Assembly (NCBI RefSeq): GCF_053078305.1
Contig: NZ_CP166879.1
Length of the DNA: 64,000 nt
Direction: 5' to 3' (one strand)
How positions within the stretch are numbered: the stretch's first letter is position 1; each line of letters begins with the position of its first letter. The position numbers and the translations under genes are program-made. Shown here piece by piece: positions 42,528-43,626 of this stretch. The notes beneath the pieces are model-generated. The model worked only from the letters and a program-made list of their open reading frames with translations. It did no database searches and was not told the DNA's origin.

Positions 42528-43626
42528 TTAGAACTGGTAAACCAGACCTACAGCAACGATGTCATCAGTGCTTACACCGAGTGCTTTAGTGAAGTCATTT
42601 TTGTCAAGCAGGTTGATTTTGTAATCAACGAAAGTAGACATATTTTTGTTGAAGTAATAGGTTGCACCTACATCAACATATTTGACTAAGTCCTGATCGC
42701 CCCATACTCCAAGATCCTTACCTTTAGATTGCAGGTAAGCAACGGACGGACGCAGACCGAAATCGAACTGATATTGTGCAACAGCTTCGAAGTTTTGAGC
42801 TTTATTAGCAACGAAGTGATCAGCAAATACAGTCATATTCTGGGTTTCAGAATAGGTAGTGGCCAGGTAAATGTTGTTAGCGTCATATTTCAGACCTGCG
42901 GCCCAAACTTCTGCATTTTTACCGGAAGCAAATACTTCAGGAAGAACTTTCCCTGCATTAACTTGAGTGTCGGTACGATCAGATTTCGCATAAGTTGCAC
43001 CGATACCGAATCCTTCGTATTCATAGGTAGCAGAGAAACCGAAGCCATCACCGTTACCTTCGGTGTAGTTATCGAAATCGCTACGATCGTTTTTGCCTTG
43101 GTACTGAGCAGCAAAGTTCAGACCATCAACCAGACCAAAGAAGTCGTTGTTACGATAGGTTGCAACACCAGTGGTACGACCAGTCATGAACACATCTGTT
43201 TGGGTCCAGGGTATCGCCACCGAATTCTGGCAGAACGTCAGTCCACGCACCGATGTCGTATGCTACACCGTAGTTACGGCCGTAATCGATTGAGCCGTAG
43301 TCACCGAATTTCAGGCCTGCAAATGCAAGACGGGTTTTGTCTTTGGAGGAACCTTGAGATTCAGCGCGGTTGCCTTTGAATTCATATTCCCACTGACCGA
43401 AACCAGTCAGCTGATCGTTGATTTGGGTTTCGCCTTTGAAGCCCAGACGAACATAAGTAGTATCACCATCATCTGCATCGTTAGAGGAAAAGTAGTGCTT
43501 GGCATTAACTTTCCCGTACAGATCCAGCTTGTTACTGTCTTTATTATAAATTTCAGCTGCCTGAGCAGACATCGCCATCAGTACTGATGCAGCTACAGCA
43601 GAAATTGCCACTGTTAATTTTTTCAT
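42528..43626 (-). pseudogene. Phage-borne OmpC/NmpC-type porin gene, frameshifted
   Basis: N-terminal 158-aa ORF (43150-43626) and C-terminal 240-aa ORF (42528-43250) in different frames; a single extra base near 43205-43212 splits them. Confidence 0.7.

Follow-up and report, generated by a model that had tools for sequence, protein, structure and literature searches.

A one-base frameshift in the lc/nmpC-type porin gene of a lambdoid prophage: more likely a consensus error than a pseudogene

The stretch of Escherichia coli DNA analysed here (64,000 nucleotides, referred to as the window) carries a lambdoid prophage whose porin gene, on the minus strand, is broken into two reading frames, and this raises the question whether the break exists in the bacterium or only in the record. 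The preliminary description had offered two answers, a genuine pseudogene or a sequencing error, and this turned out to be the right framing, as no third reading survived the analysis. From the comparisons given below, we consider the base responsible for the split more likely to be a sequencing consensus error than the mark of a real pseudogene, with a probability of about 65%.

The lc/nmpC-type porin gene extends from 42528 to 43626 on the minus strand and comprises 365 codons plus stop after removal of one base, while in the record it is split. Open reading frames and a tblastn search with the intact 365-aa allele of E. coli EC93 confirmed that the gene lies in two frames, with residues 1–139 in frame −2 and residues 140–365 in frame −3, each 100% identical to the allele. 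The sizes of 158 and 240 codons initially given for the two pieces hold as lengths of open reading frames but not as lengths of porin, since only 139 and 226 codons are authentic, which together make up the 365. In the upstream frame (43626..43150, minus strand; 158 codons), porin sequence is restricted to codons 1–139 (43626–43210, ending with PEFGGDT), followed by 19 out-of-frame codons and a stop (43150–43208) in the upstream frame, which runs on from 43209; read in the other frame, the same bases are also authentic porin codons 140–159. The downstream frame (43250..42528, minus strand; 240 codons) begins with a GTG and ends with VGLVYQF, and only its last 226 codons are porin (43208–42531; together with the stop, 42528–43208, WTQTDV to VYQF in tblastn), the other 14 being out-of-frame read-through or overlap. 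A signal peptide is missing from this piece. The signal peptide of the gene is formed by codons 1–23 (43558–43626), as indicated by the annotation of the phage PA-2 lc record and by the mature chains of the solved OmpC and OmpK36 structures, which align from residue 24 (AEIYNKD). Authentic mature codons 24–139 (43210–43557), as delimited by tblastn and the alignment to OmpC (2xe2), end with the loop-3 motif PEFGGDT.

Alignment to intact porin genes, which had been proposed as a check, revealed one 1-nt gap in the coding region and no other difference. The gap was placed in the gene-strand run GATA[CCC]TGG, corresponding to 43209–43211 on the plus strand, and not in the neighbouring GGG at 43202–43204; the gene strand reads GATACCCTGG here and GATACCTGG in intact alleles. 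Thus, GGG in the record (plus strand; CCC on the gene strand) stands against GG (CC) in every other copy, and the site overlaps a CCWGG (Dcm) site at 43206–43210. The earlier explanation of the split by a single extra base in a short G/C run is thereby borne out, as is the expectation that its removal restores a continuous frame of 365 amino acids. Positions 1–111 of the Pfam model Porin_1 are covered by the first piece and positions 111–337 by the second, with nothing missing from the model, and the break in frame corresponds to model position 111, immediately following the conserved PEFGGDT in constriction loop L3. While a functional Lc or NmpC protein is encoded in one uninterrupted frame, the frame in the record changes after codon 139. 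The split distinguishes the record from all other copies examined by exactly one base and is deterministic, so that chance statistics are irrelevant to it.

With regard to its identity, the restored protein covered positions 1–337 of Porin_1 (PF00267, E = 1.8e-156) and reached 527.8 bits with the NCBIfam OmpC subfamily model NF007841, above the cut-off of 484, while it scored under the equivalog cut-offs for PhoE and OmpF. It could be aligned over its whole mature length with the solved structures of OmpC and OmpK36, and the signal peptide, the loop-3 motif PEFGGD, and the C-terminal YQF could all be recognized, both by translation and by alignment to OmpC (2xe2). Several sequenced temperate phages, among them Turner and PhiR29_1, encode a porin of 100% identical sequence, and the exact intact sequence of 365 amino acids is on record from more than 1000 contigs, e.g., under the name "outer membrane porin protein LC". 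These matches, together with near-identity to Lc and NmpC, agree with the original assignment to a phage-borne porin of the NmpC/Lc/OmpD group. Judged by its sequence, the gene is the classical lysogenic-conversion porin gene lc/nmpC of lambdoid phages, predicted to encode a general diffusion porin of the OmpC type. Porins of the Lc type are 16-stranded general diffusion porins like OmpC. The chromosomal porins OmpC, OmpK36, PhoE, and OmpF are trimeric 16-strand barrels, and the end-to-end alignment with OmpC includes PEFGGD and YQF; in contrast to them, the porin studied here is prophage-borne and accessory. Several phage records label this porin OmpD, the name of a Salmonella porin.

The porin gene lies antisense between quuD, encoding the Q antiterminator (41955–42338, plus strand; 100% identity to QuuD, WP_001204780.1), and essD (44215–44430, plus strand), an order also found in DLP12 and in EC93. 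It is flanked by rusA, ylcG, and quuD on one side and by the lysis cassette essD-rrrD-rzpD (44215–45385, plus strand) and bor/iss on the other. The porin stop is followed downstream by a terminator-like hairpin, GGGGCGTTGCAACGCCCC, and ATTTTT (42372–42389, minus strand). That lc has a promoter of its own is established; in the present sequence, a scan of 42300–44250 for the sigma-70 consensus gave no site, and no promoter is therefore placed.

Among the characterized relatives, lc of phage PA-2 (J02580; Blasband, Marcotte & Schnaitman 1986, as cited in a passage of PMC11677980) was 99.2% identical to the restored protein over all 365 residues. Its signal peptide, annotated as 69 nt, is of equal length, and, as here, the gene lies on the opposite strand to nearby lysis genes, namely Rz and ORF2. 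The PA-2 record covers the lysis side only, with Rz and ORF2 upstream on the opposite strand, and contains about 0.8 kb with annotated CRP sites between lc and the lysis genes. While PA-2 lc is one continuous open reading frame, the frame is broken here by an extra C after codon 139. In E. coli K-12, nmpC of prophage DLP12 is the same gene in the same order (rusA-ylcG-quuD, the antisense porin gene, essD-rrrD-rzpD-bor), although DLP12 is located at argU and the prophage of this study at argW (the CPS-53 site). The first 347 residues encoded by the nmpC copy of phage 434 showed 99.1% identity. The gene is inactivated in K-12 and phage 434 as well, but by an IS5 element after codon 346 (PMC11677980), a real and well-known lesion common to many strains, whereas the single-base lesion of this study was found in one assembly.

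A search with an 81-mer spanning the site against 5,426 complete E. coli genomes showed that 2,041 of them carry the segment, none with the identical 81-mer and the best match being 80/81. With a 40-mer containing the frameshift, no match was obtained in GTDB representative genomes or JGI metagenomes, and the one match in IMG/VR, which agreed with the window at every one of 7,645 nt, represents the same assembly. Exact look-ups of the 158-aa and 240-aa products among 15 billion proteins found neither on record. All of about 30 related loci that were fetched were wild type at the site, and in some of them the entire quuD-essD interval matched the window at all but two positions. Relatives found by exact look-ups of RusA, replication protein P, and TerL, which were 99.2–99.9% identical locally, were all wild type as well, and no close sister genome of strain 48, the strain to which the assembly belongs (see below), was among them. 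PA-2 lc, K-12 nmpC, an allele class of 91% identity, and modern intact alleles likewise had no extra base. Signs of an evolved pseudogene, i.e., the same lesion in related strains or further decay downstream, were therefore not seen in the complete genomes, the fetched loci, GTDB, or JGI, or in the gene itself, both halves of which are 100% identical to the intact allele at the protein level. Absence of further decay would be expected of an artefact and of a very young lesion alike.

Comparison of the surrounding sequence revealed that the extra base does not stand alone. Across the quuD-essD interval (1,876 nt), the window differed from three independent genomes by the gap in the porin gene and by one other base, a private A-to-C exchange at 42391, which turns the C5A5 of relatives into C6A4 (42386–42395, plus strand) in the intergenic region beside the terminator hairpin of the porin gene. 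This C6A4 variant was absent from 16 fetched loci and from 2,501 complete genomes. When the region 37372–45073 was compared with 11 independent relatives, the insertion at 43209 and the change at 42391 were the only two private differences, and no ordinary private substitutions were detected. A third change was identified about 2.5 kb from the porin insertion, in codons 2–3 of bor/iss (45701–45706), where the window has T6 (A6 on the gene strand) in place of the T7 of 13 relatives. As a result, the first ATG (45709–45707) is out of frame, and an open reading frame of 94 amino acids from Met4 (45417–45701) is left, in line with the NCBI annotation of 94 amino acids here versus 97 elsewhere. T6 occurs in 19 of 3,037 E. 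coli records (0.6%), and this bor/iss allele has either arisen naturally by slippage or results from a recurring sequencing error. Altogether, these three run-length changes within 3.3 kb were the only private or rare differences in 8.3 kb compared with 11–13 relatives.

The rest of the window revealed another picture. A comparison of 25 kb of chromosome with five genomes gave seven private differences, all of them substitutions and six of them transitions, which cluster as recombination patches do, while private indels were absent; thus, natural private variation looks different from that in the porin area. No indels were found at 33–37.4 kb, 45.7–49.8 kb, or 61.7–64 kb, and no single-base run-length change was detected in about 45 kb elsewhere, including 230 runs of at least 5 nt. 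The run-length census took in chromosome and prophage sequence on either side of a satellite-like element at 49.9–61.7 kb, whose closest relatives are only about 91% identical.

As to the origin of the record, exact protein look-ups led to contig JPQG01000003.1 (GCA_000736735.1; 1,424,899 nt), which carries the extra base and matched the window at 100% identity in all stretches that were fetched, window coordinate x corresponding to contig coordinate x + 693,091. The accession JPQG00000000 belongs to E. coli strain 48, a subAB2-3 Shiga-toxin-producing isolate from roe deer, and sister strains from the same laboratory were sequenced by PacBio SMRT only (PMC5323612). Based on this laboratory's practice and on a 1.42-Mb contig spanning a lambdoid prophage in a deposit from 2014, we infer that the assembly of strain 48 is a long-read one as well, probably PacBio.

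The errors that survive PacBio consensus polishing nearly always concern the length of homopolymer runs, and residual long-read errors tend to concentrate where reads map ambiguously. [quoted passage not shown] A consensus error would appear as a private run-length change accompanied by others of its kind and not by ordinary substitutions, which is what was found around the porin gene. Since three run-length changes occur there without ordinary substitutions while substitutions occur elsewhere, we favour an artefact; a natural mutation spectrum would rarely be expected to yield such a combination. The extra C·G pair after the loop-3 PEFGGDT would then most likely be absent from the bacterial DNA and represent a homopolymer run-length error left in the consensus of the long-read (probably PacBio) draft of strain 48. 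It would be seated in a module that is shared by lambdoid prophages, often present in several copies in STEC and, presumably, weakly polished, and strain 48 would possess an intact, ordinary lc gene. Errors of long-read-only assemblies resemble the present case in being private single-base run-length changes clustered in an often-repeated prophage-type module and in producing apparent frameshifts in genes otherwise identical to intact alleles. They differ from it in that the run affected here is unusually short, and the platform is in this case deduced.

Several observations count against an artefact and speak for a real mutation, i.e., a recent +1 slippage confined to the lineage of strain 48, which would have made lc/nmpC a null allele and a young pseudogene. 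This reading we regard as less likely than an artefact. Residual long-read errors favour longer runs and deletions, whereas the change observed is an insertion into a run of 2 nt, giving 3 nt, and thus atypical. The assembly is otherwise accurate, as 28.8 kb of chromosome are free of indels and 22 genes of the prophage nearby have their full length, so that an artefact would have to involve a locally high error rate in the porin module. The bor/iss T6, being present in 19 other records, may be a natural allele. Loss of the porin would not be without precedent, as the gene is dispensable and naturally inactivated by IS5 in K-12 DLP12 and phage 434, and selection on the prophage is possibly relaxed, its portal gene being interrupted by an element of 11.8 kb. 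Moreover, the NCBI annotation of the assembly lists no porin protein at the locus. If the lesion were real, the loss might have been neutral or selected, e.g., by removal of a phage receptor or a permeability route. Against a real mutation stands the restriction of the lesion to one assembly, together with 100% amino acid identity in place of any further decay. Furthermore, two more run-length changes, one private and one rare, lie within the same 3.3 kb in which ordinary private substitutions are lacking, a pattern other than that of the chromosomal part with its substitutions and its lack of indels.

A variant of this reading would take all three run-length changes as real and as the result of a slippage burst in the Q-lc-lysis-bor module, by which lc and bor/iss were knocked out or weakened together, perhaps under selection by phages or serum factors. 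Passage through a mismatch-repair-deficient host or error-prone replication after induction might have caused such a burst, which we consider highly improbable.

Still less credit can be given to a functional split, in which ribosomes would shift by +1 at ACC-C-UGG to produce the full-length porin or in which the run would serve as a phase-variation switch. Porins are phase-variable in some other genera, and a weak Shine-Dalgarno-like string (GGUGG) lies a few bases upstream of the site, but nothing speaks positively for such a split. Programmed sites are conserved, whereas the one found here is not: no homologue has the extra base, and PA-2 lc, K-12 nmpC, other alleles, and all 2,041 genomes are in one frame. 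Contingency loci typically have at least 7 nt, against 2–3 nt in this run. The codon after it, CUG, is both common and rapidly decoded, so that no pause for a +1 shift would arise, and re-pairing from ACC to CCC would be poor. Programmed frameshifting and phase variation were thus rejected, being unconserved among homologues and set in an unfavourable sequence context. A chimeric consensus of two porin alleles was rejected too, because PA-2 lc, K-12 nmpC, and the 91%-identity class are all without the extra base.

If the frameshift were real, the 158-aa product would consist of the signal peptide, about five beta-strands, and a nonsense tail of 19 residues with three cysteines. Since such a product would be unable to close a 16-strand barrel and the remaining 226 codons are without an export signal, the result would be a null allele and a lysogen devoid of Lc. 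It would then represent a second, independent route to loss of the dispensable lc/nmpC gene after the IS5 insertion in K-12, and ordinary prophage decay. If it is a consensus error, as we favour, it would be another false pseudogene made by long-read-only assembly in a prophage module and would call for caution in counts of pseudogenes or porin repertoires based on such assemblies. As a practical check, we suggest asking whether the private differences of an assembly are all homopolymer run-length changes. The lesion is ordinary either way, a false pseudogene, which we favour, or a trivial recent pseudogene of a long-known porin.

In regard to the surroundings of the prophage, positions 1–28839 represent E. 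coli chromosome, from ypdC through evgS, emrKY, and dsdA to the csc sucrose genes, and differed from strain YZMc3-1 by 110 substitutions and no gaps over 28.8 kb. The sucrose genes (23049–28383), encoding a LacI-type regulator, CscA, a kinase, and a transporter, adjoin dsdA, with only a remnant of dsdX left, and this arrangement is common to the closest chromosomes. The prophage starts at 28840, at the argW attachment site. Its left junction (28825–29113) is of the CPS-53/KplE1 type, with a 15-nt 3' fragment of argW (pawZ in K-12) followed by the excisionase gene torI, which is 100% identical to the K-12 CPS-53 copy. A lambda/DLP12-like early region directly adjoins torI, and an integrase is lacking at the left prophage end. 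As a hybrid, the prophage combines a KplE1 recombination module with a lambdoid body.

Apart from the single-base run-length changes, only two other length differences from the closest prophage relatives were identified, both intergenic. At 39680–39697, the hexamer TCATAT occurs three times versus twice in relatives, a 6-nt difference at 39686, and at about 32968 a 2-nt deletion changes GGTTTGTG to GGTGTG.

The portal gene of the prophage, which is of the lambda type, is split into two halves (49021–49854 and 61680–62459) by an integrative element of 11.8 kb (49855–61679), with junctions AAGGCGAT|TTATG and AGCCATGTATG and a 21-nt direct repeat, GTGTATTGCAATGTGTATTGC, at 49980 and 61588. The element encodes a tyrosine integrase (50051–51292), AlpA, a Bro-N protein, an Ash-family protein, a RepA-like AAA_25 helicase, and SSB, as well as a lambda-E-type major capsid protein (57967–59022), a D-type decoration protein, and a Nu1-type small terminase. 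Portal, tail, and lysis genes are missing from the element, which therefore resembles a phage satellite residing in its likely helper. With a split portal gene, the prophage may already be impaired. A different variant, 80–88% identical, occupies the same portal site in EC93 and many other E. coli, while other relatives have an intact portal protein of 533 amino acids.

A further accessory region was found between kil and the cI-like repressor gene, where the prophage carries a gene pair encoding a DUF3037 protein and a HipA_2 kinase (33047–34623). In closely related prophages, the same slot is occupied by genes for a Ser/Thr protein kinase and a 153-aa protein or for a DUF6932 protein and a 310-aa protein. 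The slot has the appearance of a hotspot at which accessory, possibly defence, cassettes are exchanged.
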